A stretch of DNA of 64,000 nt from Ophelia neglecta (lineage: Eukaryota), in NCBI GenBank assembly GCA_965285935.1, contig CBDIWN010000008.1, positions 806,001-870,000 of the forward strand, in the 5' to 3' direction. Numbering within the stretch: position 1 is the stretch's first letter; every line of letters begins with the position of its first letter. Shown piece by piece: positions 1 to 35,277 of the stretch. Both the position numbers and the translations under genes were made by a program. The notes beneath the pieces are model-generated. The model did not search any database, was not told where the DNA came from, and saw nothing but the letters and a program-made list of their open reading frames with translations.

Positions 1-1663
1 TTACTTTTTCGACAAATTATCACTAATCGTTATCATTGTAGTGATACAGCCTGTAACCGGTGGGAGAGGTGAGTTGATTATACCTCATTTCAATCCTGGA
101 TCTGCTCGTACCTAGTCATCAGCTGTAACTTAAGTATATATGTTTAGGTATGTATATATGTATATATACATGTATAGTCGGCGACAACTTATCATTTTGT
201 CTTGTACTTTTTACTTCAGTAGCTCTGATACTTGAGAAAGTTGTAAACATAGTGTTGTGTCTTGAAGCGTCAGAACTACTGTTCATATGGTAATGAAAGC
301 TGCTGTTTTTCACATTGCCACGCTAAAAGTTATTCACACAACCAATTAAAATAAGATTTGCATGTGCATGAAACCGTAATACGTACTTTACCGAAACGCC
401 TTGAGAACAATACGCGGCGGGTTAGGGGGAGCCGCAAGTTCAGTCACGTCTGCTTATATGGTTATATGTAGGGCTAGTCAGCCACTCAACTTCGCCCCCT
501 GTTGGCCATTGGCGGAACTCATAATCATGCCCTTTTTGGAAAAGGCACGAGGAAAACCCTTGTTAGTTTAGCTATTCAGGTCGGTTTAAACGTCAGAGGG
601 CAAGGGCAAAACGGCGGTGATTAGGTGAGGACACAGGGGAAATGATCTCTACCCAAGATGTCTCGCCTGTATAACATGAATTCACGAAGATGCATTGTAT
701 ATGATATACCAATGTGATTACCAGTTTTATACCGGAACTATCTTTGCGTACCGAAGTACTGAACTTTGAAAATGGCTTATAGCCCAAGGAACAAGGTTCA
801 GTACGAGGTATATATAGAAAATCGAGGTATAGAACAGGCTTTGAATAATAGTCCCTGGGGAAAATAAGGTGGCCAACCAATTTAAAAAGCAAACATCAGC
901 CAAATTCAGCAAGACTGGTAACAGTATGTCCATGAGTCGAGCACTCTTTCCGAGCATATATATATACAAATATAATGTAAACAGGACCATTTTAAGTAAA
1001 TACCTCAACATCAGACTTGGCTGTGACAAAAGTGGACTGTTCTTTCTGCGCTATTATTACTTTCTCGTGCTCCCGGTGACTATCGTCAACAGACAGTGTT
1101 AACATTCCTTTTTATTCCCTATAAGACATTGTGAATAAGGCTATCGAGCACGGAAACAACCTGTGGCGACACCTAGCGAGCCTGAAATCCTTGGCAAGTA
1201 GTGACAAACATTTAAAACTAGAAAGTAGTGTACAGTGCTCTTTTTACGGAAAACTTACGTTTCTTTCAATTATTTACCTGTAAAAAGCAGTATATATTGT
1301 GGCGCGAAATGCCATATAGACATGCTATATAAGAACATAATTTCCACTCGTCTCCTCGTACGTATGCCTTATATCCGGTAAAGAGGGGGGAGGGGGGCTG
1401 TAAAGCCTGTTAATAAAGAAAAATCACTTTTGTTTAAACTTAATGTGTTCTTTAAAATAACGCTAGTTACTATCAGAGAATGACCTTACTTGATAAAAGA
1501 ATCTTAAGGTTGTTTTCATATCAGTCAGGCAGTTTATGTTAATTACGCATCGACTTATAAGGATTTTGTTTCGGCTGCCGTGTATACCTTCCCTTTTTAA
1601 TTACTTTATTAATGAGGCCGTGATGACAATTGAAAGCGCTTTAATTGTGTTGGGTACTATCAG

Positions 1664-4600
1664 TCTTTTGTAGATTTGGCAACACGAATGGATGTGTGTT
1701 TCCATGTCTGTGCACTACTGGTTGTGACAGGACGACATGGGCGTGTTTGTCCCCAGGATTATGTCAGTTGGACGATCCCTCGACAGCCGGAATAAGGAGA
1801 ACCGGGGCTGGCTGTAGAATAGGTAAACCTTTCCGTTTTTCATTACGTTGGACACATTTTAACAACCCATTAATGTGTTTACTACATTGGGAATATAGAT
1901 GCAATTAGTTGCTCACAAATATCGAAAAATTTCGGAAAGAAAGCTTTTTATCAATGTATCAATATTTTGTTTTAAATTGATAACCACAATCAAGATTAAA
2001 TAGGACTAAATTTCCAAAACACGAATAGTAGGAATAACATAGTTGAAGGTTCACATAAACCGTTAAAAGAATAAACAAAATTGATTGACTTAGGTATTAT
2101 TTACAGTGTTAGACACTGAATTCCCAGTCACATTATTTGCCGGATCACCAATACTACTCACAGAACCGGCAGACGATTACAAATACTACTTACACAATGA
2201 CGAGAGTAGTTACCGGGGAGACGATTACAAATACTACTCATACAAAAAACGAGAGTAGATATCTGACAGACGATTTAAATCAGTAGTCACGAACGACGCA
2301 TTAAATCGCTCCCAATTCGTCCCCACAATTATAACACAATCAGGGAAGATATGTTATGGCCTATATTACCACACTTTGCATTCATTGTTCATTAAGAATT
2401 GGGGAAAAGACATAAATGAAAGTAGAAAAGAGCGGATAACAAATGTTACTATTCACTGATATTGAAATTTCTATGGATATGTAATGTAGCTCGGGGAAGT
2501 CCTACCAGAATGGACAATGGGATAACTCCCACGCGGGTTTACAGTGGATGGTATTATTACCAATAGCATATACGAATGTGAAAATCTGCATTTCTAGTTC
2601 AATTACAATTGGGACAAGCCGGACAAAGTGTACAGCCGGGAGAACTTTAAATACAGATACAGTTAATTGCTAACATTGAATTTGTTATTGTTAGGTAATG
2701 TAGCCCTTGGAAAGATTGCGTATCAGAGTGGACAGTATACTAATTTACGCGCTGGTCTGGCCGTTGACGGATTCATCACAACGAATATAAGTCGGTGTGC
2801 ACACCCTGACGCTGGGCCAGGGAAAAGATCTTGGTGGTACGTCGACCTCCTAGAGTTCTACACGGTTGTCAGTGTCACCATTTTTAACAGAAAGGATATA
2901 CAGTCCAGGGCCTACAGTAAGTTAGTGTAGCTTAAAATGGTTATAATGTTTTATTTCTAGTGAACCTGACCTTTCAGACAGTTTGATAATTTGTTATGAT
3001 CAGGTTATAAAACAAAGGTAATTTTATTTCGAAGCATACAGTTAAGTGAGATATTTGAGGAATTATATTGTTTGGACAAACGAAAATTTACACTAGTTTA
3101 TGACTATGGTCAAATGATGGCCGTATCTCTTTATGATCCAGGGAACAGCCTAGCATACTACTAATTGGTCAAATTATCCGGAGAAAGACTGTCTAAGTAA
3201 GTTTTATGATTAAAAATGTAATAACCATCATTGTTTGATTACAAGTTAAGAAGTTCTTGACTGATTAATGCGTATGTGTTACTTGTTATGAAGGAATAAA
3301 CGAAATTTGCCTGTGCTGTTAAAATAATGAATTTAGGAGCACAAGCAAAAACTACAATTAAGATAATAATCCGGAAACTGGTAAAGCCCTCTAATAAAGT
3401 ACTGTTAGTGTTTCAGCTAACTTTTTCCATATCTGTGACTCTATGTATCTTTACCCCTTATCAGGGGTTTCAATTTGCTTATGACAACCGGGTGACAAAG
3501 TGTGAATTAATCTCGTCAATGCCAAAGACTAAGGCTGTCTAGGTTAACTATATGAGAGGTGGGGATAAGGGTGTAAGTCTATAAACCCAAACTACACATG
3601 GAAATTACCCTGGTTGATAGAGTTCGGATGCTTGTATGAGTGGGAATGTGGGAGAGGATAATTGAAATAATGTGAGGAGGGGATGGAAACATAAAATACA
3701 CAATTGTTTGTGTGATTGCGATTTTGATCGAAGCGTGACGCAGTAGATAATAACTAAATAACAATAACAGGTAAAGAGTTCATTCCACCCTCCCCCCCCC
3801 CTCCACCCCCCCCCCCCCCCCCGCAAACCTTCAGGGCTAAACCAAACGTATATAGTGTTAAACAAATTGACTTAGTCAAAGCTACGTTGGTCACAAACGT
3901 GTCAATAAAACAAAGGCAGGCGCCTCTGCATTGCTTTGAAGACTTTTTAGCATGTTGTGTAAAAGCTCCAGTTACTGATGGTGCTAGGACTTTGTTATAT
4001 CTCCTGCTGTTTTAATTAATAGAGCGAACAGGACAGTTTCGACTTGGAATAGGAAATGTGACTGATGGTGACAAGACTGATCTCTGCAAGGACTATACGA
4101 AAATCATACCTGAGGGGGGACACGACACCATACAGTGTAACTCACCAGTTACTGGCAGATACGTGACCATTATCCGAGATGCAAACGGATTTCAGCCCCG
4201 ATTTCTCGGACTGTGTGAGGTTATCGTTCAAGGATATAAACCAATCAGTACGGTCTTGTCCTCACTCTTTCCATCCAGTATTCGTTTTGACTTTGATCGA
4301 AATATATGGTGGCACTACATTTACTTTCATAATTACGTGTGCATACCTTTTTACAGGTAACACGGGGCATTAAAAATAAGCAAATACAGGGTGTAAAAAC
4401 TTATGGCGAATTATCACCTAGTTTTTGGATGTATCTTTTAACTTTAGTTTATCGAGCTTAGATGCTCAATTCTTAATTGCCTGTATTAATTAATTCAGAA
4501 AAATAGTACACCTAAAATCATTCTTATTTGGTTTATTCCTTTTTTTTTAACTAATGCCTGAAGGAAGCTGACGAATTATGGCAAGTTATGTCTAAGAATG

Positions 4601-7600
4601 TGACAATTCAACCATAATCAATGTCGAATGTTTAATTATTATAAACATAAGGTCGGGCCAAAATAGATACTAGATATCGACAATGTGTTTTGAATGATGA
4701 AATAACAAAACAAAAACCGCATATACACATTCAGACGCTGTTTATGATTTATTTATTGTTTTGTAGTTTGCGACAGTGGCAGATGTCAGTCTTGCAGTTC
4801 TATTTCTGGTTGCGAAAAATGTGCTCCGGGAAGTGAATACCCAGATTGTAAAAAGGGTTCGCGCTTTAATGCATTTTTATTTGGCTGGTAGTTATTTCCA
4901 TTTTTAATTTCTAGACATCACTGTTAGATGTAAATATCTAATAGGGGTACTATTTCTCCCTGTTATCTTCACCGCGTTCTTTATGATATATTTTACAGAA
5001 TGCGACGATAATGAGTATGGCGACAATTGTGGAGAACGATGTAGTGTGAATTGCTTTAGAAATAATTGGTCCACCAATCGATCATGTAATATCTCGAGCG
5101 GACGGTGCTTGATTAGCTGTAACGAAGATTATTGGGGTGACAGGTGTGAATACACGTGTAATATGAACTGTCGGCGAATAGTTGGTGAAAAAGTTTGTTC
5201 ACAAGGTAACGGTACTTGTACCCAGGGATGCCTGAACCCTTACTACGGTGACCAGTGTCAAAACTCCTGCAGTAGTGGATGTAGTGTCATCTCGGGCTCC
5301 AACACGTGTCACATTGATACAGGCGCGTGTAACTACGGCTGTCAAACTGGATTCTATGGCGATAACTGCAATAAATCATGTAGTAATCAGTGTATTGATG
5401 TCTGTGATAGTCATAGCGGGTTATGTAGTTGTACGATTAATGCTTACGGCGATACGTGCAATCATAACTGTAGTAGTCACTGTGAGACTATAGAAAACGC
5501 ACATATCTGTGAGAAGGACAGTGGAGTGTGTACTCATGGCTGCCAACTACCACCGTATAGTACCTGGTATTCTGGAGACCTATGTGACCGACCGATAAAT
5601 AAAAACTGTTTTCCTTAACAAAACAATTCAACGAAAAATGGACATATTGTTTAATTAAATTCAATCACTTATATCGATTTAATTGCGGTTGTTTTACAGT
5701 GTACTTGGCCTACCCATCGAACCAACCAATGAAGATTATCAGTACCACGGCAACATCTGTCACCATTGGCTGGCCTCACATCCTTGTGGTTTCAAATGCA
5801 AACACTAAATTTTATGGCTATAGAATTTATGCCATTACAGGAAACCGAAAAATATCTTTTGAGCATGCCATTTCCGAAAACAATATTTCGAAACAATATA
5901 ATCTGACATTAGATGGCCTACAGGAAAACACTGTATATGACATTAAAATTACCCTGTATCGTACAGTTTTGGGTAGAACAGAAGAGAGTAGAGATAGCTC
6001 GGTGGTTGTATCTGTAACTACAGGTAAACTTATGGGCACATTTGTCGTATCTTAGTAATAAGTGAAACATATTTAGCCAATAGAAAGATTGAATCTTACG
6101 TCAAGGTATATGTACGGCAATGTTCAATAGGTATTGTACGATGCAAAGGTCTATATGAGGAATTTGTTGCTACAAGTCATATTCCAGAACTACTGCTTTA
6201 TTTTAACCAGGGCAAACTTCGCCTCTCTCAACTGGCGCATTGGCAGGAATCGTCATAGCGGCTGTTGCAATTATCACCGCCATTGGCATTACTATTGGTT
6301 GTCTTATTATCAAGTGAGTTGTACCAGAATAAGGGACACTTTCTATTTTATTTTATTGAGCAACTACGGCATTACGGTACTTAAATTCTTAAGTTAAAAA
6401 AAACATATTTAACTGGTTTGATGTTATAAGGTCACTAGATATATGGTGATAGTAGTATAGATGAAAACTTGTAGCGTGAATTGGTGTTGTCAAACTGTTT
6501 CATATGTAAACAGGTCCCAAAAGCAAACCCATTCAAGGAATGAATCAACACAAAATGAGATTCAGGGTCAGCCTACCCAGGAAGTTGACTTCACTGACTT
6601 AAGCGCGTATGGCGAATCGTCTACGACACAAGGCGGCAATGGTAAGAGGTTTTTAATTGACATTTTTTAATTGATGAGGTTTCAACATTTAACCATAAAA
6701 TCATATATTTCATATGTCAAGGGTTTTCACGAGAATTATATTGAGAGAATACAAGACAATCTGTCAGAAATCAATGCTGATAAATTTGTTTTGGGAACTG
6801 GAAAATTGCATTTAAAATGCCGTTTTATCAATTTGAGATAATTAAGATATAGCGGCAGACGACTAATCTCTTTTTAGTATATGGGTGGATCTGTGAAAAT
6901 ATATGCCGATAAATTGGTAAATGGTTATGCCACATACAATAGCGCTTATGGGACATATTCTAAGATTGTACATGCATCCGAAAGTACGATTTTGGGGCAG
7001 GCGGCTATTAACGTGTTTTTGTTTGTTTAGCCGCAAACTGCGTTCTGGACAACACACATGTCAAAAATGGCAAACAAAGCTGAATGTTCTTGCAATGTAT
7101 AAGCAATAACATTATTGTAAGACATAGATGGGTTATATTGATAATTGTCTTGTGAACTTCTCTGACTGATCAAATGATCATTGTATACCAAAGAATACGC
7201 AAGTAATTTGGGGCTTTTTACTTTGTGCAGTTCTTTGCCTTAAGACATTTTTACTATCATGTTACAATGAAAAAAAGGTTTGGAGTTTTTGGGTTAAACA
7301 TTTCCATTGCCCAATGGAAATCACCATGGAATATGATTTTGCATGAATTTTAAATTGCATTGCAGTGTGCCAAAAGTATAAACCTATTTATGCAGTTCTT
7401 AATTTTCTATATTAGCTATATTTTCTATATTTCTATATCAGTTTCCATATAATTTCGTTTGGTTAATCACACTTAATGATCTTTTAATGCGTAAATAGTA
7501 TGGATTAAGGAATGTTTTTATATGCATTTCAGCCAATCTGACTGGAGAGGAAAATCCGACGTACGAACAGTTAAATATAAATGAAGACTATGGGAAATAA
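1664..7600 (+). CDS. Paralog A: F-type lectin / EGF-repeat / FN3 single-pass receptor with short Tyr-motif tail; 5'-partial, splice-donor lesion (secreted form or decaying gene)
   Basis: Exons 1664-1822 (Cys-rich, VFCRFGNTNGCVFPCLC), 2695-2916 and 4023-4247 (F-lectin: NVALGKIAYQS..AVDG..CAH..WWYVDL..VTIFNR / GRYVTI..LCEVIV), 4767-4856, 4999-5598 (5 EGF-like units), 5700-6023 (FN3), 6211-6313 (TM GALAGIVIAAVAIITAIGITIGCLII), 6514-6641, 7533-7600 (ANLTGEENPTYEQLNINEDYGK*). Intron phases match B and C. The donor after the large EGF exon reads AT, not GT. No signal-peptide exon found in the window. Confidence 0.85.
2150..2280. repeat. Imperfect ~49-bp tandem repeat
   Basis: agacgattacaaatactact.atac..aa..acgagagtag occurs twice, with partial flanking copies. 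Confidence 0.7.
2481..2588 (+). pseudogene. Degenerate copy of F-lectin exon 1 in an intron of paralog A
   Basis: gtaatgtagctcggggaag..taccagaatggacaatgggataactcccacgcgggttt..gtggatggtattattacc aligns with the start of the intact exons (e.g. 15913 gtaatgtagcgcttagaaagccggcctatcagagtgga..gcgggtttggccgtggacggtattattacc). It has indels and no acceptor AG. Confidence 0.75.
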
Positions 7601-11576: not shown

Positions 11577-14500
11577 ATGGCTCCTATCACGTGTCTGTGT
11601 TGGCTGGTCATTTCCAGCGTCTTTCTTTCAGCTAGAGTTGCTGGTCAGCCAGGTCAGTAGATACTACTATTTTCATTTTGCAATAACACAATTTTGTTGT
11701 TGGCAGTGGTATGATTCAGGATTCAAAAGTGTGGAGGCATCTTTTTGGCGATACAATGCAAGACGACAATAAATGAGCCAATGTTTTGTCACATGGAAAA
11801 ATATTAGTTAAAGTTGGTAACCCGTATGGTCAAAATGGTAAACTTTGTCGATAGATAAATCATACGGACCTTGAGCGTATGAAAATAAAATATGTATATT
11901 TGTAACATATGTATATATGTATATGCCACATCCGTCAGATGTTCCTCTTACATAACTGTTCCTTTTATGCTTTTCTGTGTATCGAGGATCCAACTCCGAA
12001 GGTAGACCTTAGTTGCACCGAAATATTATATACTAATTATAAAGAAAGTTAAAGTCAAAGTATTTAAATTATATTCGGCTGTAGTGGTCTGTTTATAGAG
12101 TTTACCGCTTTCACGTGTAACTATATCTAATACAACCCATCCTAATCCGACTGCATCTTATACCACCCGTCCTAATCTGACTATATCTTATACCACCCGT
12201 CCTAATCTGACTATATCTTATACCACCCGTCCTAATCTGAATTCATCCTATGGAACCAAACTACATCCTATAAAAATCTTCCTCATCTGACTACATCTTA
12301 TCAAACCCATTTTATTAGGACTTCATGTTATATGAAAATTGGCACATATGCCGAAATGAAAAGAACACGCCATTAGCATCATTTTATATGCAAAATGCAT
12401 ATGGCGTTCTTTTTTCATTCAGATTTTAAGGAGGGTAACATAAATGTGACAGTATGATTCAATGCAATATGAATTGGTAAAAATATATGGCATCGCTGCA
12501 AAAACGTTATCCTATACAAAGCCATGAAGTCGATGCTTAAACGGTGTGTATAGTGTTGTATTCACATTCAGGGCCGCTCGGAAACCAGGGTGTTAAGATC
12601 ATTTTAATGCACACACTAACTATAGCCATACCTATATTCCTCTCTAACCGGCTCATAATTCACTATAAACACTCGAATGGCAGTTATCTCATGGGAAGCA
12701 TGGCTTCGGTGTGACCCGAGACAACCTGTCACAAGCGAAATGCCGTCAGCTTTTGTATGTGTAATGCAATAAAGCTACGGTGAACGTTTGCCGGATCTTC
12801 GCCTGAAATTTAGAATATTAGGTGTTTAATATTACGAGGAGGCGCTGATAACCTCTAAATCCCTCAAGAGGATCCTACGTCCTGTAGATCTGCCAGGGAC
12901 CCTGACAATCTCTAAATCCGCCACGGCATTCTTTGCCTAAGAGCTTCAGCCCGTCACTGAAAGTTTGCTTGGCAAAAAGATATGCACATATAATGTCTTC
13001 CTTTTGTTGATTTTAACAGTAGACACGTAGCCCTGGTGTCAAGATGGCTGACGCGGGGATACGAATTCTGCAAGTTTAAAAGGTCATTTTTTTAGCTTCA
13101 CAGATAAATGTTCGACATATTTATTTCTTCGGGCTCTTGGAGAGTCAAACTACGATCAATGACTCCACTTAAGACTGCTCGTGCGTAGGTTCTAGTTACC
13201 ATTGTTTAGACCCACGCATTTAAACATTGCAAAGGCTTTGAGTGTTTAATTCCGCTCATCATAGGCTTGGGGCAATGTGCATCTGTTTCATCCCATCCAA
13301 TATTATCGATGTAAAACACCAATTCAAAACACACAAAGTCGAACTACGGTCAATTTCCCAGATGCCTTCTGCCTCTGCTGGCTTGTTCACGGGTATGTTC
13401 TTAATGTATTTAACAAATTTCATGGCATTTATATACACAGCAACTTGGTCCTCGCGGTAAAATAATGGGTATGGTCCAACCGTGCTGGTTTGTTTATTTG
13501 TTTATCACGGCATTGTCTTCTAGTAGTAGAGATGGCTTACACCTAGTTATTTTACAATGGGTGAAAATAGAATAATATTCTATTCTATTCCCTTCCAATC
13601 CCAATTTAATATTATTGAGCTGGTTAAGATTATTTTCATGTTCAGAGCATGGCACCCAGAAGTAATGATAGTGTATTTTTGTATCATTTAGCCACACGTC
13701 GCGTCCTCGAAGCTTGTTTTGATTAGAGGAGAGACATTGTAATTATTTGGTTTAAAGATGGCTGGTAAGAATAGTCATTCAGATCTGAATCTTTTGGTGC
13801 CGGTGTCTTTAAAGCCCTTTATCTATTGCATTGCCAATGAACATAGCTTGGGATTGCTTTCTGATGAGTTCGATTTAATGGACTAGTCTTTGCCAATGAT
13901 TTGCTTTGTGCGCCTGGAAGTTAGTGTATTGATTTCTGTTTTCAGTATTCGATAGCACCCTGTGTAAGATCACAGCCGCCGGTCGCGAGTACAATGGTAC
14001 ACTAGCCGTGACAACAAGTGGTATAATATGCCAGAGATGGGACAACCAGTCCCCTCATTCTCACACGTACAAAAACTCTAACAATTTTCCGGATTCGTCA
14101 TTGGCGGCAGCTAATAACTATTGCAGGAATCCTGACCCCGGATGGTTCGATGGTGTTTGGTGTTACACCTTGGATCCGAACACAAGATGGCAACTGTGTG
14201 ATATCCGATTCTGCTCAGGTAATCTATTCTGTATTTACCTATAACATGATTGTTTACTTTCATATACCTTGTCCGGTCAAAGTCCGATTTCCGAAACCAG
14301 CTGCACAAATAAACGATCGATGCGAGACAAAGATACGCAACCACACATGGCCCAATAGTCCGAAAGAAACATGAGCTGGTATAAATGCAAAACACGGAGT
14401 GGAATAATAGGTCAAAATTTTAAAAACAAAGATATAAGGGTTCTAAAGGCGATCGTGTAGACGATTTGGTTTGTTAGATACATGGCGATCTACTACGGAA

Positions 14501-17500
14501 ATAAAAGAAGGTTGGAATGGCCCAATAATTAGAAATTATTCTGAAATCACACTGACATGATATTGTTTGCCGCGTATCCACTCCCGTTGTTCAAAGAAGA
14601 TCCGCATGTATTTTGTAAGTCCGCATTTGTACACTGCGGAATAACTTCCGAAAAGCTTCATTGATTGTAGGACCAGCTCATCCAGAGCATTATTATATAG
14701 AACGGTTTATAGGATAATGCTGGTTGCGCTTTTCTATAGTATGAATGATAAACAATCCAACGACCGTAGCGTTTACAGGGAGGAATAAACAACGTTTGAG
14801 GAGATTGATGTTTTCTTTTATATGCGTTTTCCTATTTTAAGCTATGTTGCACACGCGTGGCGAGGTGAAATAGCCTTTGAGGACGTTTCAAATTTAGTAA
14901 TCGCCCTGCCATTCTACATAGGTGGGAACAACTCTTTAAACTAAGGCTTTGCTGTAAATATATTTACATTAACAGGAAATGAACACATATGTGTAATTCT
15001 TGTCAATTTATTTTAACTTATTTATTGATAAATAATATATGTATTAGTTACTAAAAGAATTTTATTTTTAGGGAAGGACGCGCAATTGTTAAGAATAAAT
15101 AGAGGGGATTTCAACCGGTGTTTCCACGGTGATATTCCTCTGGCCACAGTTTTAATGCCCATTATGTAACTCCTCTAATCTTTAGCTAGAAAATAGGCAT
15201 AATCCTAACATTTACACTCTCATATAAGCGCGATCTTGAATTTCTAGACCTGGTCGTCTACCTATTTACACCCAGCTTTTAACTTTGATATATATACCTT
15301 AGACAAAGTAATTGGATTATACGACAAGCATTGAAACAAATTAAAAGCGTATTTGTCTGCCAGTTTGTAGATTTGGCAACACGGCGGAATGTCTGTTTCC
15401 ATGTCTTTGCACTGCTGGCTGTGACATAACGACAGGAGCGTGTTTGTCCCGAGGATTATGTCAGCTGGACGATCCCACGACAGCCGGAATAAGGAGAACA
15501 GGAGCTGGTTGTGGAATAGGTAAAATTGTCGCTTTCGATTATGATAGTTGCGAGCCATGATAATTGTAATCATCATGAAGCGGATGAATGACCATTTTGT
15601 TTTGTCCGCCTGGTGTTCACTCCCGGTTTTTACTAAGCGGTTACCTGTTCGATATAAGTTAAGAAACAGCTCGATTTTTCTGGTTATTTTACCCGCATCT
15701 TTAAATCAGCAAGTGGGTGTATAATATGGAAGGCAGAAATGTATTTCAAATATGCCAGCGCACTCGGAGTGTCTATCAATAATTATCTACGGGTAGATAT
15801 AACGAAATTGTACATTAATTCCTCATTTAGAATTACGGTAACCAATGTAGAAGGCGGCGGATGCTGATAAAAAATCAAATAAGTTACTGACAATTTAACT
15901 TGTAATGTTTAGGTAATGTAGCGCTTAGAAAGCCGGCCTATCAGAGTGGAACCTGGAGGAATTCACAGGCGGGTTTGGCCGTGGACGGTATTATTACCGC
16001 TGACATATCCCAGTGTGCTCATTCTGACGCTAAGGCTGGGAACAGATCCTGGTGGTATGTCGATCTCCTAGAGACCTACACCGTTATCAGTGTCACCATC
16101 TACAACAGAAGAGGTTCACATTCCGGTTAGTTATATACTTTCAAGGTTTTATTTTTAACTTGACCTTCTGTCAGGGAGTGGGTTCAGGTGACATATCGAG
16201 AAATGTAAAATTGAAATGGACAGGATATAAAAGAAGGGTAATATACCTCTACCTTTATGACAATTAAGTGAGATACTCAAAAAAGTTTTTCAGAAAGAAA
16301 AAAAGTTTTTCAGAAAGAACGAAGATGTATACTGATGGGTAACTATGAAGGCTACACTACATATAATTTAGTGCCCAGCTCACTAGCTATTGGCTACATT
16401 ATCTTAAGAACTGGGCTTGGAAGAAACACCACCTAATAAAGGCCATGCAATGAACAATTTATTGTACGATCACTGCCTTTCTGCCTATTTGATATTTTTT
16501 TGATATTTTTTGGGGGTTCTTGTTATAACAGATTGGATGATTTTTGCCGAATAATTATTATCCAAATTATAATCATAAGTAATATTTGAGAAATAACTAC
16601 GGAAACTAGTTCCCGAGTACATTTGAACATGATAACTAGACTTCATAACTCGCCCAGTATGCCGAATTCGTCTCATTTGACTGTAGGCGTCACGGGATAC
16701 TGTGTTCACGGGTGACTCCATGCACAATGTATCGTCAGAAAAGAGACAAAAACAAGAGACACCACAGGGAAGTTACTACTGGCACTTTGAGACCGATGCC
16801 TTGAGATAATAACCAAAAACACCAGCATTGCCAGCATTTACCTTGAGATAGTTAGAATACATCAAGTTACTAATCTCACACAGACACTGGGCTATAAATG
16901 GTAACGGAGGCCATAGCGACTGATCTCCCAGAGGCAGGGTACATATTAAAAAAATTACTGACCCCTGGGGTAAAACTATTCCAGACTAGCACAGAAAGAT
17001 TGTTTGCTGCAAATGCAAACCGACTGTGGTCTACATTCCAGATATGACTTTTAACAACTGCAATGCTATGCTTATGTACATAAACATGACTAACAGAATT
17101 TTGCAATAAAAATTCACACTACCAACATTTTGTAGAAGTCTATGTCCTTTTGGCATATTATGCATATAAAGCCCCATCATTGATGTCGCAATTAAAGTAC
17201 TGTTATTGAGGTTGCAAGGGTTTTTCTTCTATTTCTTACAACTAGAGCGAACAGGACACTTCCGACTGGGAGTGGGAGACGTTACCGATGGTGACCAAAC
17301 CAGTCTTTGTAAGAACTATGCAGGCGTCGTACCTGAGGGAGGACATGACACCATAGACTGTAACTTGCCAGTTACAGGGCAATATGTCACCATAATCCGA
17401 GATGCAAATGGATTTGAACCCCACTTGCTTGGACTGTGTGAGGTTATGGTTCATGGATATAAACCAATACGTATGCTGAGTAGCAATATTTTTGTTTCAT

Positions 17501-20500
17501 AATGAAATTTTAATATAATGTTGCGGCTAACACTAAGCTTTCGTTCATGCAAAAAGTTTAATAACTAATATTATATTATTATCCGGTTTCTGCGTGGAAT
17601 TTTTGTTTGTTTGAGATCATACTGCTATAATTGGTTAATTTTAAATTTCATTATTAATTAATTAAGAAAAAAATCCATGGTAATATGATGGTTGCATTCT
17701 TTATTTGAGTATTGTAACTAATGGCTGATGACGCGGTTTGGTAAGCTAAAGCCAAGAATATAACTACATAGTTAGAACCAATGTTAAACGTTCCTTAACT
17801 AGTGTACATTAAACGTTGGGCCTAAATTATTATTAACGTTACTCATTGTTGTTTGATGGATAAATGTAAACAGAACTATGTACGGGCTATGTACTTGTAT
17901 GATTGGGTATCATGGAGAGCAGTGCGAGTACAACTGTATGGAGTACAGAAGTATGTACACATTCCGGTATTTAGTATGATTTGTCTTCCCATCGACAGAT
18001 TGTGACAGTGATCGTTGTCAGTCATGTAGTCCTCTTATTGGCTGCGACAAATGTGCTCCGGGAAGTAAATACCCAGATTGCAAAACAGGTAAATGAATTT
18101 TAGTATTTTCGATAGCGCTTTTCCTATGTAGTATTTGGAATTTTATTATGAGTGTTATATATCTAACTATTATCTGCCCCATATAATAATATACATGATT
18201 TGTAACCTTCTTTACAGAATGCGATAAAGAACATTTCGGCGACAATTGCGAAAAACGATGTAGTGATAATTGCCTAATAAATCGGGGGTCTAACTCTCGA
18301 TCATGTAAACTCTCTGACGGCGCTTGTCTCAATGACTGTAGAGAAGGCTTTTGGGGTGACATGTGTGATGGCACGTGTAATATGAACTGCCGGCGGATAG
18401 TTAGTGATGAAGTGTGTTCAAAAGATAACGGGAGTTGTACCCAGGGATGTCTGGACCCTTACTACGGAGACCAGTGTTTACAATCTTGCAGTAGTGGATG
18501 TAGAGTCGTCACGGGCTCCAACACGTGTCACATGCACACAGGGTCTTGTAATAACGGCTGTCTACCAGGGTTCTACGGCGCCCAATGCGATAAGACATGT
18601 AATAATCAGTGTCGTAGTCTCTGTGAGAGATACAGCGGGCTATGTACTTGTATGATTGGGTATTATGGAGAGCAGTGCGAGTACAACTGTAGTATTCATT
18701 GTGAGACAGTCGATAACACTCAGACCTGTGAAAAGGACAGCGGAGCGTGTAGTCACGGATGTCAGCTACCACCTTATAGTACCTGGTATACTGGAGATAT
18801 GTGTAGCCAACGCATAGGTAACAACTCGTTTTACTTAAAAACGATTCCACTGAACTGAATACAAATATACATTTACCTTCTTTTATGATTGTTTTACAGC
18901 GTACTTGGGTTACCCATCGAACCAAACTATGACAATCATCAACATCACAGCAACATCTGTCACCGTGAGCTGGCCCCACACAGTTGTTTTTCCCAAAGAA
19001 AACTTGCGTTTGTATGGCTACAGAGTCTATGCCATTACTGGAAATCAACAGACTTTATCTGATCATAAAATTGGTACCGACAGTGCTTTGAAAATATATA
19101 ATCTGAAAATAACTGGTCTGCAGGAAAACACTGTTTATAACATGAAGGTGACTCTGTATCGTACAGTGTCGGGAAGAACAGAGGAGAGTCGAAATAGCTG
19201 CATGGTCGTATCTGTTACCACATTACCAGGTAAATATGCGGGTATTTAAGGTCGTTCTTATATATGTAAAGAGAAAATTTAGAAAATGGGAAGCGCGAAA
19301 CTTGAAACAATGAATGGGCATTAAAATACATGCTACAAAACGGCTACCTGTTTAGGGTGCTGAGCTGTTAGTGCGTGGCACTTTGTGGATATGACTGCCA
19401 TGCGGGTTTGGGCGCATGCCGCATCAGCGCCGCAACGGCGGTACAGCCTATTTCACAGGAACCAAGAAATACATTATATGTTGGCCATTTTACCCATGTG
19501 TTATATTCCAATAAGCTGTTTATGTTGACCAGGGCAAAATTATCCACTGGAATCGGGCGCATTGGTAGGAATCGTAATAGCGTGTGTTGCATCACTCACC
19601 ATCGTTACCATAGTTATAGGCTGTCAATTTTTCAGGTAAGTGAAATTGATATTTTCTTATTGATTACATGTAACAGTTAAGGCATTAGGACAAATTCATT
19701 TCTTAGTTAAAACATCCCAATAGAATGTTATCTCGTGTATTATTTGTCTATTGTTATTATATGCATGCCTGCATATATTCATGTAGTCCCTTGCTGGAGT
19801 GTAGATATTTTATGTGGAATTGCTGTCATTTTTTCGCCGGTCCTACTTTTTCATATATGCAGAGTAAGAATTCACCAACGTTCAACGAACGAATCACAAC
19901 CAACTGACCACCAGGGTAACGCTACCAAAGGAGTTGAGTCCACTGAATTCAATTTTTACGAGGAACCGTCACTGGAAGCAACCGGCTATGGTAAGAGCTA
20001 ATGAGCTATATGGGTTTCTGTTTTATAATAATTCTTTATTTAATTTTACTGCATTACGAGGTCTGACCAAATAACGTAACGGGACAAAAAGATCCTCCTT
20101 TAATACCCCATGGTCACAGACTAATATTGGGAACTAGGGAAGTACATGTCTACCTAAATGTAGTTCTTCACTTTGATCGGTGTCGTGTATAGCGACAGTT
20201 AAGTATTTAGGTTCATATATTAGGTGCATAATATCTTAAAACTTATCGTTGTTTATAATAAGTGCATTTCCACTAATGGATGACACTGCTCGGGCAATGA
20301 TATTCCTTGCACTTTAATATATATGACTGTAAGGGAAGCGGGGGGCTTGGTCAGTTTCAACACACATGTTTCTACACGACACCATTATCAAGCTTGAAAA
20401 TGCAGGTTTCTGTGAATTTCGCTACGATTTATACATGCAATAATATCGCAGAAAACATGGGTTTTAACACTTGTTTAAGCAAATAGCAATGAACAATCTA

Positions 20501-20760
20501 CTTTCGAAGCTTTTCGTTAGTGCAGATTTCTTGGCCATGAGGAACACTATGGAATAGTGTTATGTTCTTTATTTTGCCATATTCCATTTCACTTGGAATT
20601 GTAGTCCTGTATGATCTTTAATAAATGTAATGTGCCATTTAAGGATGGTTTTATATGTTTTACAGCTAACCTGACGGAAGATGGGAAACCTATGTACGAA
20701 CAATTTCACCCAAATTCAGATTATGAAGAAATAGACAAGATAGGTGGCTCCAAGCAATAA
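11577..20760 (+). CDS. Paralog B: kringle + F-type lectin + EGF repeats + FN3 single-pass receptor with tandem Tyr-motif tail (~762 aa)
   Basis: Exons 11577-11652 (signal peptide MAPITCLCWLVISSVFLSARVAGQP), 13946-14218 (kringle), 15364-15519, 15913-16125, 17246-17470, 17999-18088, 18218-18817, 18900-19229, 19533-19635 (TM GALVGIVIACVASLTIVTIVIGCQFF), 19863-19990, 20666-20760 (ANLTEDGKPMYEQFHPNSDYEEIDKIGGSKQ*). All introns GT-AG; total 2289 nt, open frame. Confidence 0.88.
12121..12330. repeat. 30-bp minisatellite (ctatatcttataccacccgtcctaatctga)
   Basis: Four near-identical 30-bp units at 12121-12240, followed by degenerate units. Confidence 0.9.
13946..14218 (+). CDS. Kringle domain exon of paralog B (phase 1-1)
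   Basis: Flanked by ttttcag| and G|gtaatc. Translation LCKITAAGREYNGTLAVTTSGIICQRWDNQSPHSH..NNYCRNPD..VWCYTLDPNTRWQLCDIRFC has six Cys and the NYCRNPD and WCYT kringle motifs. Confidence 0.92.
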
Positions 20761-25100: not shown

Positions 25101-25945
25101 CTTTATGTGGCAAAAACGTTCGTAACTTTATTTCATAAAAATAAAATGTAAACGCATTGCGATTAGTATGAATAAAACTGCTTCAAGTACCTTTACCATT
25201 ATGTTTATGCTGGAATTGAGTTCCCGATGAATTAGAATAAATAGTTATGACATCCCTACAAACACTCCTGATTGTATAGCCACTTTATTCACTGCTAGGC
25301 GTGTTGAGACGAGTTTATTTAGTTCTAGACGACCGCTCAGCAAGGAGAACTTTAAATTCATTTTTAATGTATGCACGTTCGGTAGATGTGCCTGTATGTA
25401 TACGTGCGATTCAGAAATGGCTCCTATCACGTGTCTGTGTTGGCTGGTCATTTCCAGCGTCTTTCTTTCAACTAGAGTCGCTGGTCAGCCAGGTCAGTTG
25501 ATATATGTTTGCTATTTTCGTTTTGCAATAACACAATATTTTTGTTTTTGGCAGTGGAATGATTCAGGATTCAAAAATGTGGAGACATCTTATTTATCGA
25601 TACAATGCAAGACGACAGTAAATTAGCTACTGTTATGTTTCATGTAAAAATATCAGTGTATGTTGGAAACTCGTATGTTCCTACTGTTAAACTTTGTGGA
25701 TGAAAGGTCATACGGACTTTATAAGCACTTGAAACGAATACTAGCAGATATGTATATATATATATATGTAACGTTATTAGCCACATCCGTCACATGTTCC
25801 TCGTAACGTTACATAACCCCATTTCCTTTTATGCTTTTCTGTGCATCGAAGATCCAACTCCGGAGATAGACCTTAGTTGCACCGCAATATTACATATTAA
25901 TTATAAAGAAAGTTAAAGTTAAAGTGCTTAAATTATATTCGGCTG
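22195..25945 (+). repeat. Duplicated intergenic / first-exon block, copy 2 (upstream of paralog C)
   Basis: Colinear homology to 8868-12080, interrupted by mostly different sequence at about 22820-24290. Confidence 0.9.
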
Positions 25946-28900
25946 CGGAGGTTATTCTGAATAATGAGCTGGGACCTGGACCATGGGAAAATAAAATGGG
26001 CAAGAAAGCAATCAAAATTAGGTGACTGTCTAAAAATGATCCTTTGGTAATGAAAAGCATAAAAACCACTATATTCGCCGACCTAGCCCCAACACCCTTT
26101 CATACAACCTGGGTTGGGCTCCGCCTCTGCTGTTTGTCCGGCGGAAGAACAGTATCGGGAAAGGTCTCATCCCTCTACCCAAGCCTTGCTTATGTGGTGA
26201 ACGATTTGAACCCCCACATCTCTCCACCCCCAACCCTTACACCTTGGTTGGATATTCCCCTCTGATGCTTGAAACATTTGAAAGACGGTGCTGAATGATA
26301 CTTCTATGTTAGATATGCCATGCCCCAGAAATCTGCGAGTCTGCTTGGGCCATGTTCGTTGATCAAGGTGGTCACATATGAATAAAAGCTAGTATCTGAC
26401 CTTCTGGGCTAAGGTTCGACGATTGTGGGCCTTTTCAAACGGGACATTCTAGCTGGCTGATGCCCATATCTTCAATATGGTTGGCTGAGTTAACAATTCG
26501 GCAAATTGGGGTAGGCAGAATAGGTAAAAAGCATTAGGGTAACTAATGTCTATTCTGGAAAATACTATAAATTTGCATGTGCATAACATTTTTTGACAAT
26601 AAAATTTGGAATAACGGATAAGGCACAATTACTATTATATAATCCTGTGTTTGCGTATTTTCAGTACCCTCACATTTATTAAGGGATTGAATATGACATT
26701 CCCACCACAGATTCATTTCATTTCACTCGAGGAGCAATCGAACATACTTTTTTGGCAAAAGGCTAAGACAAAATAAAATAGGTTTTTTTAGATAAGAAAA
26801 CCAGCCCTTCATCAGAAGGTCTACTATATTGTGCATATTACATAACCGCATACACCAATAGAAAGCTAATGTCAAAGCTACATACTTTCACCATGCTGCT
26901 TGTATTTGAATCGTTTGTGATTATTTAGTGAACAATCAAGTCGGTTTCCTTTAAAACAAAATTGAATTATGTTAAAAGGGGCAATATAAGGTAGTCTTGA
27001 ACGACAATATACTCTTCATTTGTATAAGGGCTTGACACTAAACAGAAGAAAAATAATGTTTGTGAGATGTTAAATGGCTTGCTACCCCTCATGCAGTATT
27101 TATCTCAATATTATAGAGATATTTAAATTTCGTTAGATTCGACAACAATAAATCGCCAACGTTCAATCCTTTTCAATAGTTTATTGAATACATCCCCACA
27201 TGCCAGACAGGCAGTAAATAATACAGACTTGATCCGTTAAGAGGGTCATATCAGGCGCTTTGCCTTCTTTTGAACGAGCAAGGGAAATACAAATAGTAAA
27301 AGACTTCAACACCAACAGGTAAAAATTGTGAGCATATTAAGTCAACGGGATAATTCTAAAGGCTTTGGTGAGAGCGAGGGTGGAGGGGGGGGGGGGGGAC
27401 GGGGGCGTAATTCAATGCATTCCCAAACTACCAGTTTGAATCCGACATATACTTCTCTCACTCTCAATCTCAATGGTCTGATTTGTCAACTTTCTTTGCA
27501 CACCTTGAAGTGCTAGCAATAGTTTTATTATTGAATTAATCTCGACATGTCGGAGAGAGAGCAAATGGTATGCTCATGGTACCTGGGTAGTACCGAACGG
27601 GTTGTGGGTTTTTAATTTCTTCTGTGTACAGAAGAGTGTTTTCATGAGAGTACGAAAATAAGATATAAATAAGCCTAAATGGAATAATAAATGGAAGCAA
27701 AATAATCAAATTTTCAGCAAAATGTGATTCCTATTTATTTACTTATAAATACTTCAAAATATTGTCTGATGACTACATGGTTTTCAATCAACCCCCGACT
27801 ATTATTAAAACACTACTTCATGCTGTGTACTAGTCACGATAATTGGTGCCCCGTGTAAGATTAGGAGTTGAACTAGGCTTATTAACGTCATCTCCGACTG
27901 GCAGTATTCAAGAATTCATGCATGCTACTAAAGTATGTTAATTAAGCACTAAGTCTTCGAATCGTTTGGGCAACTGTACTGTGGGTTTCAGCGTAAAATT
28001 AAATATTACCCAAGTAATGGATTTCTTCGATCTTATGATCAAGTAGCAAGGGGCGGGAGAAGGGGGGGGGGGGCGACTGCTCTTACTACTTGTTAAGATA
28101 AGGCTAGTGAAACCCTTGGTTTGCGTATACATTTAAGATGCGAAGATAAAAAAAAATCCCAACGGTTGTTTATCGAAAATGTAACAAGCTGTCACCCTGG
28201 AGATTGATATGAGAAGAGAATTGATAGATCACATCCCGTTCCATGCAAAGCAAAAACCAAAAAAAAACTAACGTGACGCATATACCAAAAAAAAACCTGT
28301 TTGCGTATCATGGAAAGTAATTGTCCTTCCTCACAGAATAAGAGAAATAAAAATGAGATAAAAAAGGATCTCGCAATAGGAAAGATAAGTCATGCATATT
28401 GAACACTACTCAGTGAAACAAAAACTATCTGATAAGGGTAGGCGTGATATGGAGAATGGGTTTATGTATGTATTGGAATCAAGCTTTGTCCCGATACCCT
28501 TCTAGAAATAACTTCATTGAAATAAAAGGGAAATTTCGATTTGGGAATCAGAAACCATCTTAACTCGTATATATCTTATGTTTAATAAAGCACATCAGCC
28601 AAATTGACGCAGCTCACCAATTAAACTAGTTTTTTAGATATTCTTTTTTTCATCAGGTCCGTGTTTGTTTGGGCGCACTGCGGACTGCGTATACCCCTGT
28701 TTGTGTACCAATGGTTGTGACCGGATGACAGGAGATTGTATTAATGGAGGGCAGTGTCCGTTGGATGATCCTGCCATCATACGAAAAGCCGGACCTGGAT
28801 GCATACTCGGTAAAATTGTTTGCCTGCTTTATTTAAAACATATAAACTATTGAAACGTATGCATATTTCGGTCTTCTAATATACTTAGGGTGTACACTTT

Positions 28901-31900
28901 AGTCACTTAATAAACAACGTCACTAGATGCACATCAGGAAGTGCGTGGCTCGTGCTAACGTTTAAAAAATGAATGTATTTAAGATTTTGGGAACACGAAA
29001 TCATATTTTTATTTGATACACACCAGCGTGTATTATTAAACGTCTGAACTAAGCGAACACTTTTCTGTAAACCAAGAAACATCTTCACAGCTCTAAATGG
29101 AAGACGCCGCCAATATATCAGACATATTTCATAGCAAGCTAAGACAGTATTAACTGTAAAGTATGTTACTAAAGTATGTTACGAGAGGTCCCCAAACCTT
29201 TAACTCTAAAGCATGACAACATCACACTGTCATTAAGTACTTTAAAAACAATGCCTCAAACAAAAGGTGACGTTGTATTTTAGTTATTAATAAATAACAT
29301 CTCTAACTTTTACGCGATCGGCATTGTCTAACAGCCCTGTGATGCTAATGATTTGTTTAAGACATTTTCCGACAAAAACCCTTAGTGTTGCCATTATTTT
29401 GTTTTTCCCATAATTAAAGGTTACCAGCTGTTGCTAACATCTTTTTTTGGTAGCCTTTACCATCACAACGCGTTTCAAAATTTTGTCAGCCTGATTTTAT
29501 TCCTTGTCCTGCATGCCGAGTTTCGAAGTTTACACCTAAGAAAATGGCAAAAAAAATTATGCTCTGACTTTTTTCCAAATTTTATCGTTCCGTTGTTTCG
29601 TTGTCTGGAAATTGGCTCCTGTCCCGAAAAAGGCAATGACATCGACTTAAATCGAATGCATGGAATTAAGCTAACTGCTGTATTGGGTTTTGCACGACTT
29701 TCACTTATCGCTTGCAGCGCTCTTAATTTATATTGATTGATACAAATAAAAAATCTTAGTATCAAAGATACCTCAAGCTAGTAGTATGCGCCTTTATATT
29801 TTAGCTTACCAACTTCCTGGTCGACTACTCGGTCTGTCTTCACTACGCAGCCTGGCGCATTGCTTCACTGATGGAAACATTATTGACAGATCGCAGGGTA
29901 TATAAAATATTAATATGAACTGGTTGCCTAAAACAGAAAACCGTTGAAATAAAGGATTTCGAGCCGCGCGAATATCACGAACGGGAGACTTGCATACAGC
30001 CTAGCATCAGATGTAATAGTCAAGCATCAACCGAACAAACTTACGGCTTCACCAAGGGCGAAATCTCCCCATGATGTCCCCAATAAATTAACACTGCCCA
30101 AATCTCAACGGCGAACGTGATGAACAAAACTGATATATTTCTCGCCTAAACTAGATGCACTGCTTCAACTTTGATACATATTAATTACTGGGCAGGGCTC
30201 TTGCGCTTTCTATTGTAGTTTTATACCGTCATAGGAGGCTATCTTTGGTAGAACCTGTGTATGTTCCACGGGTAAATGGCACAAACTCTGCCGCATCGAT
30301 ATCCCTGGAAAAAGAGTTGTTCCAATCAGTAATAGTTTTGGGAAAATACATTTGGTAGGATGAGGTTCTGCAGGTTGGTATTATGAAAAGTTGTCTGTCC
30401 AATCCTCTGGTATTGTATCCCCAAGATGAATGAAAGTAGCTATATGGGAATGAAGATAGATGGGGAAGAATCTGACACAATATCATAAAACTTACAGAGC
30501 CGTTGGCATTTTTCTATAGCAAACATTTATTACTGAAACGAAGTACCATTCTAATGTTTCCGAGCTGGCTGGTATAAAATAATTCATACCTTTTGAAATA
30601 TGTATTTATGTGAGTCACGAAAGCATGAAAGTGACGTATTACTTAACAGCCTGTTGAATTAACACATTTGTATTTAAATAGGTAACGTTGCTAAGGGGAA
30701 GCCAGCTTTTCAAAGTGGACAATATGGTAATTTAATCGCGGGCTTGGCCGTGGATGGTCTCCTCATTAAAGATGACCTGACCTGTGCACACCCATTGGCT
30801 CAGCGTGGTATGAGAGGTTGGTGGTACGTTGATCTAGAGGATACCTACACAGTAGTCAGTGTCACCATCTTTAACAGAGGTCAACCTCCGTATTACAGTA
30901 AGTTGGCGATGGAATATTTGGTAAACTGACATAATGCTGGCCGTAAATATACATCGGTTTTATTTTAAGTATGACATTCTATCACCGGCATAAGGGGCTC
31001 CCTAGAAGGGTATGCAAACAAAAGATGAAATTTATGTTCCCACGGATGAAGATTTATTGCTACTAAAAAAATGAATTGGTGTAATCGCGACCACAAATAT
31101 AATTGTTCATATGTACCAACAACTCGATATTTTTCCATCGCAGTGGGGTCGCGGTGGGAATGGGTGGCCAATTTCTTATCATTTATTTCTCTTCGTCTGC
31201 TAGTAGCTGCGTCACTCACAAACATATGATTAATGCAATAGAAACAAAAGTATTTTCTACAAGGGCAATATATATTATTTAAACTTCTACTTTTTCATGA
31301 AATATAATCATATATCAACTCGTGAAAAAAATGACCTACTTATTTCTCGCAAACATTGTCAAATTGGCAGATATTATCTGCTTCAGACCGTGATATTAAG
31401 TCATAAGAAAGATCAGGTAAAGATTTCTATTTGAAAACTTTAAACGTATTTAAAAGGGCAGTAGATCAATACAGCCAACCGTTGGCTTTTTATATGTTGA
31501 ATTAGAAAACGGGTACAATGTAGACTAATATTCTTTAATATAATACATTACCCGATAACTGTGCTCTTGAGAGCGAGGCCATTGCGTCCTTTGGGCTACT
31601 GCAGATGTATCCGGTATTTTTTATTCACAGAACGCACTGGTAACTTCCGCCTTGGAGTTGGTTCCCAGACTAACGGTGACCAGACAAGTCTTTGTAAGAA
31701 ATACACAGGTGTAGTTCCTCAGTCAGGACACGACACCATACAGTGTAACTCACCCCTCAGCGGCAGATACGTCACCATTATCAGATATGCAGGCGGGTAT
31801 GATGACAACCAATTTTCTCTGTGCGAGGTTTTAGTTCATGGATACAAACCTATTGGTATGTTAAAACCAGTACACAACGTCTTCCTTGGATGTATGTAAC

Positions 31901-34900: not shown

Positions 34901-35277
34901 CAACGACATTGGTTTCCACCCTTGTATAAGTAAATTACAACGAGCAAATTATTTTCGAAGTTTTTTTATCGAAGCTTTTTTATTTCGAAGCATATTGATT
35001 GAGGATCTTTTTTGTGATTATTGCAGATGTTAGCCAACATGTATTTTTTGCAATCTGAAAAGTATAAACATATTAATGATGTTCATTATTTAACCATTCT
35101 TGAATTTCACGTGGAGGTAAAGGCCTTTATGACTTTTAATAATCTAATATTTGAATTAAAGGACGGTTTTATATGTTTACAGCTAACCTGACGGTAGAGG
35201 GCAATCCAATGTACGATCAATTACACGCTTATTCGGATTATGAAGATGTAAACAAGACAGTTGACACCAAGGAATAA
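25417..35277 (+). CDS. Paralog C: F-type lectin + EGF repeats + FN3 single-pass receptor with NPxY / tandem Tyr-motif tail (~669 aa)
   Basis: Exons 25417-25492 (signal peptide), 28657-28809, 30682-30897, 31631-31855, 32378-32464, 32628-33227, 33330-33659, 33963-34065 (TM GALAAIVIACVTSIITVVIGICCLIF), 34284-34408, 35183-35277 (ANLTVEGNPMYDQLHAYSDYEDVNKTVDTKE*). All introns GT-AG; total 2010 nt, open frame. Confidence 0.9.
30290..30480 (-). mobile_element. 3'-end relic of a non-LTR retrotransposon ORF2 (CR1/L2-like)
   Basis: The minus strand encodes YNTRG..FIIPTCRTSSYQMYFPKTITDWNNS, matching the RT..Y..SFFPRTIxxWNxL-type C-terminus of these elements. Confidence 0.55.

Follow-up and report, generated by a model that had tools for sequence, protein, structure and literature searches.

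Loss of a splice donor ahead of the transmembrane exon in one copy of a lectin-EGF receptor family, with a predicted anchor-less read-through product

Gene A and its paralogs

The window, a 64-kb stretch of Ophelia neglecta DNA, carries a receptor gene (gene A) and its paralogs B, C and D, all on the forward strand. The gene A model has ten exons, which encode a signal sequence, an EGF-like module, an F-type-lectin-like domain in two exons, a short and a 600-nt EGF exon, an FN3 domain, a transmembrane (TM) segment and a cytoplasmic tail in two exons; all of its splice sites are GT-AG except the donor at 5599. Exon 1 (1..68), with an ATG 5 nt ahead of the window, ends in a phase-1 GT donor, is conserved in the sister copy A′ described below and encodes a signal peptide predicted by a hydrophobicity scan, not by SignalP. 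The first Cys-rich EGF-like module (1664..1822) is modelled with 8 cysteines and has a Gly-to-Trp change derived in A. The two halves of the lectin-like domain (2695..2916 and 4023..4247) are followed by a short EGF-like exon (4767..4856, 6 cysteines) and the large EGF-repeat exon (4999..5598, 32 cysteines), both modelled as phase 1-1. Beyond a 101-nt intron with an intact AG acceptor (5599..5699) lie an open FN3 exon with intact splice sites (5700..6023; Pfam fn3, E 2.2e-6, above cut-off), an intact TM exon (6211..6313), the first cytoplasmic exon (6514..6641) and the last exon (7533..7600), in which YEQL is kept and the second tyrosine motif reads YGK and a stop. When spliced through the ancestral junction, gene A is open from its ATG to the normal stop and encodes 663 aa. 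A second signal-exon-like sequence resembling exon 1 lies on the same contig (C16) at about 796568-796640, 9.4 kb before the window; no downstream exons were found between it and gene A, and it may be a relic or an alternative first exon.

Protein searches give few relatives. The best named relatives of the large EGF exon are mollusc MEGF6-like proteins, with 3 distant mollusc proteins among 32 candidates. As queries, the second lectin exon and the FN3 exon returned nothing at E <= 0.001, and a representative protein library gave 18 distant, unnamed FN3 matches. A C-terminus from the same species is present in none of the EGF-exon or FN3 protein matches found.

The first lectin exon matches Pfam F5_F8_type_C_2 below the curated cut-off (E 2.2e-5) and, in sequence rather than in predicted fold, the F-type lectins FBP32 (PDB 3cqo, E 6.5e-10) and AAA (PDB 1k12, E 8.1e-7). 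With these lectins, as far as the available text of PMC5712786 describes them, gene A shares a His, an Arg-x-Asp (R-K-D) and a hydrophobic-hydrophobic-DG element. It differs from them in motif spacing and in that the domain sits in an EGF/FN3 receptor. The fucose motif as given there, HX24RXDX4(R/K), is absent from gene A, where the His-Arg gap is 28 and the next Arg follows the Asp after 3 residues; the gene A sequence AVDGF fits the first four positions of the cation motif h2DGx but not the last, a small hydrophilic residue. Because the spacing deviates, the ligand of gene A need not be fucose. F-type lectin domains with a deviant motif are described in the same source.

Paralog B (11577..20760) has an intact 762-aa model that adds a kringle exon (13946-14218; Pfam E 3.4e-22). 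This exon sits between the signal and EGF exons, is absent from the A and C models and has the phase 1-1 form of exon shuffling. The intron before the short EGF exon of B also holds a 56-nt piece (17883-17938) that is 98% identical to part of the large EGF exon of B (18636-18691). Paralog C (25417..35277) has an intact 669-aa model. Paralog D is part-modelled, with an approximate extent of 40653..53581, and is followed by tyrosine-phosphatase exons (50891-51214 and 53273-53581), next to the short-tailed A-C. The intron between the EGF and FN3 exons varies in the family: in copies L006, L011 and L004 it is stop-free and in frame, so that its retention would keep the membrane form, and in B it is shorter (82 nt) and not stop-free in frame.

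The closest known receptors by architecture are those of the Biomphalaria LG5R cluster, as described in the available part of PMC13712769. Subgroup 1B (scavenger class F-like) consists of clustered single-pass receptors with a signal peptide and fucolectin-like and EGF-type regions, like A-C, and the cluster has, beside these short-tailed members, the phosphatase-bearing subgroup 1C, similar to paralog D. Gene A has the signal peptide, fucolectin-like domain and EGF-type repeats of subgroup 1B; the single TM with a small cytosolic part is encoded intact in gene A and absent from the predicted read-through product described below. The likeness is one of architecture, and gene A differs from the snail receptor in having FN3 before the TM.

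A splice donor disabled by one base

Window positions 5595-5603 read ATA A|ATAAAA, with A at base 5599, so that AT (5599..5600) stands in place of the GT donor (+1 G>A). At the same junction B (exon end 18817, GT donor at 18818) and C (33227, donor at 33228) read ATA G|GTAAC, and D (46114, donor at 46115) reads ATT A|GTAAG. The first-pass annotation had described gene A as lacking the donor before FN3 and TM, and a survey of 42 family junctions agrees: GT is present in 39, a GT shifted by a 1-nt insertion in one, and AT in two, which are gene A in the window and its 99.9%-identical counterpart on contig C7. This survey covers the species' own genome (two stitched regions and 32 loci, two of them without a row), and its copies are related rather than independent.

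Reading through the dead site continues the frame as INKNCFP to a TAA at 5616-5618, exactly as first annotated. The tail NKNCFP plus stop (5599..5618) adds a 51st, unpaired cysteine to the 50 of the ectodomain in a predicted 462-aa product. The last EGF repeat is complete ahead of this stop, which precedes the FN3 exon; the FN3 domain, TM and tail are thereby removed, as the annotation had stated. The same base also makes the hexamer AATAAA (5598..5603), a candidate polyadenylation signal; its proposed origin in the donor change holds, as A′ reads AGTAAA there.

The donor seems to have been poor beforehand. Its G form, A|GTAAAA, lacks both -1G and +5G, as does A′, in contrast to all 27 modelled donors of A-C and the other 38 GT junctions, which have at least one of the two. 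Judged by these positions, the gene A donor would be the weakest of the family even before the 5599 change. A single G>A that both removes the donor and makes AATAAA is possible at only one of the 39 GT junctions, namely A′. Among the 27 modelled donors, -1A occurs in 4, AAA at +3 to +5 in 7, and both together in none; by such counts, the coincidence of donor loss and new hexamer is a modest one. Among the literature titles listed, none describes a naturally occurring substitution that destroys a donor and makes AATAAA at once, which is a weak negative.

U12-type splicing at this junction was considered and rejected: no U12-like donor was found in window 1-5700. For the same reason the branch-like TTCCTTAAC at 5611-5619 is regarded as a chance occurrence.

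Base 5599 in the sister copy and in sequencing runs

The 47 matches listed in the species' own genome (40 of 93 candidates scored) include three close matches to the gene A junction region: the window itself, the counterpart on C7, and A′. The C7 counterpart is 99.9% identical and also has A at 5599. The block around it, about 20 kb long, is nearly identical to C16 (99.9%), possibly through double assembly of a single haplotype, and the counterpart therefore does not count as independent evidence. The sister A′ (C7:91080198-91081236, minus strand) is inverted, 97% identical and reads ATA A|GTAAAA, so that the two donors differ by one base.

A check of the reads at 5599 had been suggested, and contigs of three sequencing runs (X1, X2 and X3) bear on it. 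All three hold A at 5599, at depths of about 26, 28 and 16, or roughly one-copy depth, with G-bearing contigs beside it. The contigs are DNA-like, being genome-sized and running through introns; no RNA run carrying the sequence is among the matches listed in the sequencing-run search. In X3 a single contig covers 5474-5629 with no other letter and continues 30 letters past 5599. The runs share one sample label, possibly that of the assembly's source, and thus exclude a consensus error rather than give a population frequency. The A at 5599 is a real base. Sequencing or assembly error, raised at first as an alternative and suggested by the adjoining A run and by a C7 counterpart that may duplicate the same haplotype, is scarcely credible given three runs with A at about one-copy depth, the uniform X3 contig and a sister copy with G.

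The position also appears to vary. In X1 and X2 an unaltered window-like contig stops at 5598, and branching occurs exactly at 5599 on a window-like background; the A′-type letters at 5571 and 5582 occur in only one of the three G-bearing contigs. A G form on a window-like background is inferred from this pattern, and 5599 would therefore vary, either in gene A itself or in a copy very close to it. This haplotype reading comes from contig tables, and Logan contigs drop variants; for the latter reason the absence of window letters at 5076 and 5190 was rejected as proof of other individuals.

X1 and X2 each contain, in one contig, a second lesion of the same donor, in which window 5543..5613 is swapped for one letter, a net 70-bp deletion. 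Its predicted product ends in KMDILFN 16 codons later and lacks the last EGF cysteine, and the new AATAAA is lost with the donor. None of the close assembly matches carries this variant. Separately, the C7 copy of A (L002) has T>C (Leu to Pro) at the position matching window 5581, a letter absent from those listed for the run contigs, which may be an assembly error.

Probable erosion and age of the gene A lineage

Gene A belongs to a large family, with at least 150 FN3-exon matches in its own genome (of 371 candidates, 150 were scored). At C7:89.1-90.0 Mb some 30 lectin-family receptors, closely related to one another, form an array with conserved two-tyrosine tails and several broken members. 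C16 may represent another haplotype of the C7 cluster at 90.4-91.1 Mb, which the start of C16 matches at 92-95%; the end of C16 is repeat. A survey of about 700 nt per copy in the own genome (the final 240 nt of the EGF exon plus FN3 and TM) found lesions in 10 of 43 copies: A twice, a deleted B-like copy twice (C16 and C7), and six others. One of 44 rows was dropped as too divergent, the TM exon was not scorable in 7 of the 43, and single-base frameshifts could be assembly errors. The non-A lesions, in 8 of 41 other copies, all lie before the TM exon. The deleted B-like copy sits just upstream of A (C16:784161-793970 and C7:90966910-90975309); the end of its EGF exon and the first half of FN3 are missing, and a short piece of this region is repeated on C16. 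Another B-like copy (C16:123358-124727) has its EGF exon match in two pieces about 330 nt apart, which suggests an insertion in the exon, and a Cys in place of the second tail tyrosine.

The tail had begun to decay before the donor was lost in A alone. The family tail has two ITAM-like tyrosine motifs five residues apart, and 30 of the 32 other tails scored keep the second. In both A and A′ (tail at C7:91076840-91076907) a shared 1-nt deletion turns this motif into YGK and a stop, and another stop interrupts the A′ tail five codons from its end. When B and C serve as outgroups, the amino-acid changes between A and A′ comprise 14 derived in A, 11 derived in A′ and 18 unpolarised; in both copies several derived changes fall on glycines kept by B and C, two of them in the A ectodomain.

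Between A and A′, pN/pS is 0.84 upstream of the donor (11 synonymous, 31 non-synonymous) and 0.52 downstream (9 and 14). The two sides do not differ significantly (Fisher p 0.40), and the comparison has little power because neither departs from neutrality. For the FN3 exon the ratio is 0.41 (5 synonymous, 6 non-synonymous), a value near the 0.37 obtained from non-independent pairs of 22 intact copies in the array; hence no additional decay is seen in the exons that follow the lost donor. The donor lesion therefore looks young, in line with the branching of the X1 and X2 contigs at exactly 5599, and pN/pS cannot show a long-standing soluble form.

These observations are best explained, with a probability of roughly 0.55, by a recent, still-variable loss-of-function change in a dispensable and already eroding receptor copy, with some TM-less by-product possible. 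A family of that size, lesions in 10 of 43 surveyed copies, loss of the tail motif in both A and A′, derived changes at glycines and a young lesion all favor a null variant; the intact state of the signal exon and the lectin domain, and of all 50 cysteines in the ectodomain, stands against it. We propose that dispensability of the copy, rather than selection for a decoy, accounts for the persistence of the A allele.

Predicted transcript fate and cryptic donors

The G-to-A change would abolish the donor of the intron between the EGF and FN3 exons. In human data, short introns are recognised as units of their own, errors in this intron definition lead to their retention, and long exons favor activation of cryptic sites over skipping, with exons showing cryptic activation being longer than skipped ones (available text of PMC2234086). 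In gene A the 101-nt intron follows a 600-nt exon, itself preceded by a 142-nt intron. It is predicted to be mostly retained, in which case translation would stop at 5616 and read-through could give only the 462-aa signal peptide-lectin-EGF protein without an anchor. A retained-intron stop that lies ahead of three further junctions is a likely target of decay. Most retained transcripts would thus be degraded or unproductive, while a fraction might be polyadenylated at the hexamers at 5598 or 5654 and secreted, and another rescued by cryptic donors. The amount of TM-less protein is predicted to depend on intronic polyadenylation versus decay. Some secreted product is plausible if gene A is transcribed, because the TM-less protein expected from retention is the same whether or not polyadenylation occurs.

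Rescue of the membrane form, by an in-frame cryptic GT or by skipping of the phase 1-1 exon with FN3, TM and tail kept, is conceivable because cysteine and serine codons (TGT/AGT) set many GTs in the right phase. Between 5300 and 5690, 20 of the 33 GTs listed are in frame. The nearest, TAT|GTGACC at 5584..5585, lies 15 nt upstream of the lost donor. In a crude count of U1 pairing, which is no trained model, it scores 11, with 13 for 5380 and 15 for 5329, whereas the real donor in its G form scores 12 and two working A donors score 11-12. The T5581C change of the C7 copy would strengthen the 5584 site, but it may be an assembly error. The length of the EGF exon also agrees with the human preference for cryptic activation. 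On the other hand, cryptic use would cut EGF repeats, 5584 itself costing the last EGF cysteine while keeping FN3 and TM, and the same cryptic sites sit unused in intact paralogs. Rescue as the main outcome is unlikely; null, rescued and soluble outcomes can mix in one animal.

A possible soluble product

The first-pass annotation had also proposed that one substitution may turn a receptor into a soluble lectin-EGF protein. The TM-less product stands as the prediction on retention. Its elaboration as a functional decoy or opsonin, secreted to compete with membrane paralogs or to tag microbes, is weakened by the pre-TM breaks elsewhere in the family, a hexamer without a downstream element above background and an in-frame cryptic donor at 5584. 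This route would have lost U1 binding expose AATAAA at 5598 or a second hexamer, ATTAAA (5654..5659), in the intron downstream of the read-through stop, with cleavage just after the stop escaping decay; the free terminal cysteine could dimerise the product. That one base both kills the donor and makes the hexamer, that the last EGF repeat is complete, and that the donor was already weak, the tail half lost and the same donor hit a second time all agree with such a route. However, AATAAA at 5598 sits 13 nt before the stop codon, so that early cleavage would cut into the frame. The hexamer is also frequent on this strand, with 90 in the 64-kb window (1.4 per kb), six of them in gene A before 5598, including one inside the large EGF exon at 5370. 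No U/GU-rich excess follows the 5598 site (T fraction 0.33 versus a median of 0.35 over the 90 sites in the window), and composition downstream of both hexamers is like background and like that of the terminal hexamers of A itself. The 70-bp deletion, which removes the last EGF cysteine and the new hexamer too, and the frequency of breaks before the TM speak against a selected decoy as well; that one junction was hit repeatedly could reflect selection no less than decay.

Known soluble receptors offer both parallels and differences. In the Flt1 In13pA mouse, as far as PMC13742059 is available, the 5′ splice site ahead of the TM exons is lost and the frame runs a short way into the intron to a stop, giving an anchor-less ectodomain (sFLT1, made by intronic polyadenylation), as predicted for gene A, where likewise the donor before the TM is disabled and an in-frame stop follows a complete ectodomain with a predicted signal peptide. 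There, engineered 5′ splice-site mutations gave a full switch to the soluble form without skipping or cryptic use, and by analogy the gene A product could work like sFLT1. Flt1, in contrast, already had a conserved natural intronic site, its antagonist product is shown, and four mutations were engineered, whereas gene A has a new candidate signal ahead of its stop and a predicted product. The Caenorhabditis elegans DAF-2B protein is similarly a secreted, non-signalling receptor ectodomain made by altered splicing (PMC7041946, PMC13421766, in the parts available), but that isoform is regulated, comes from a single-copy gene and has a demonstrated decoy action, and the gene A case concerns a variant of the genome itself in one copy among very many. 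The snail cluster provides a haplotype-specific truncation before the TM: Gene Model 104 has a stop there on the resistance haplotype, which its authors, in the available text of PMC13712769, read as likely non-functional. The snail lesion is a nonsense codon, and that of gene A is a donor loss that also makes AATAAA.

Weighing both sides, the functional decoy is rather unlikely, and the null allele, offered at first as an alternative, is the more likely of the two given the 8 of 41 broken copies, the common hexamers and the cryptic donor. A broader scenario would have the A lineage in stepwise conversion from signalling receptor to decoy, with the tail halved, the donor weakened, and then the donor lost and a polyadenylation signal gained. 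Other haplotypes would arrive at a similar state by the 70-bp deletion or the tail stop, membrane and soluble forms would coexist as alleles, and array truncations before the TM would be a source of soluble immune lectins, not junk. This scenario is improbable.

Meaning for the receptor family

If the preferred reading of a null variant holds, the 5599 change simply adds to the lesions of a receptor array under birth-and-death turnover and is of importance for annotation only. If the soluble protein is produced, gene A would be a natural one-base switch from membrane to secreted protein with both states at hand, and a clean test of whether, in an invertebrate, loss of U1 suffices to switch on a newly arisen polyadenylation site. 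A further question that it would inform is whether pre-TM truncations in lophotrochozoan lectin-EGF clusters, such as that on the snail resistance haplotype, are dead genes or soluble effectors.
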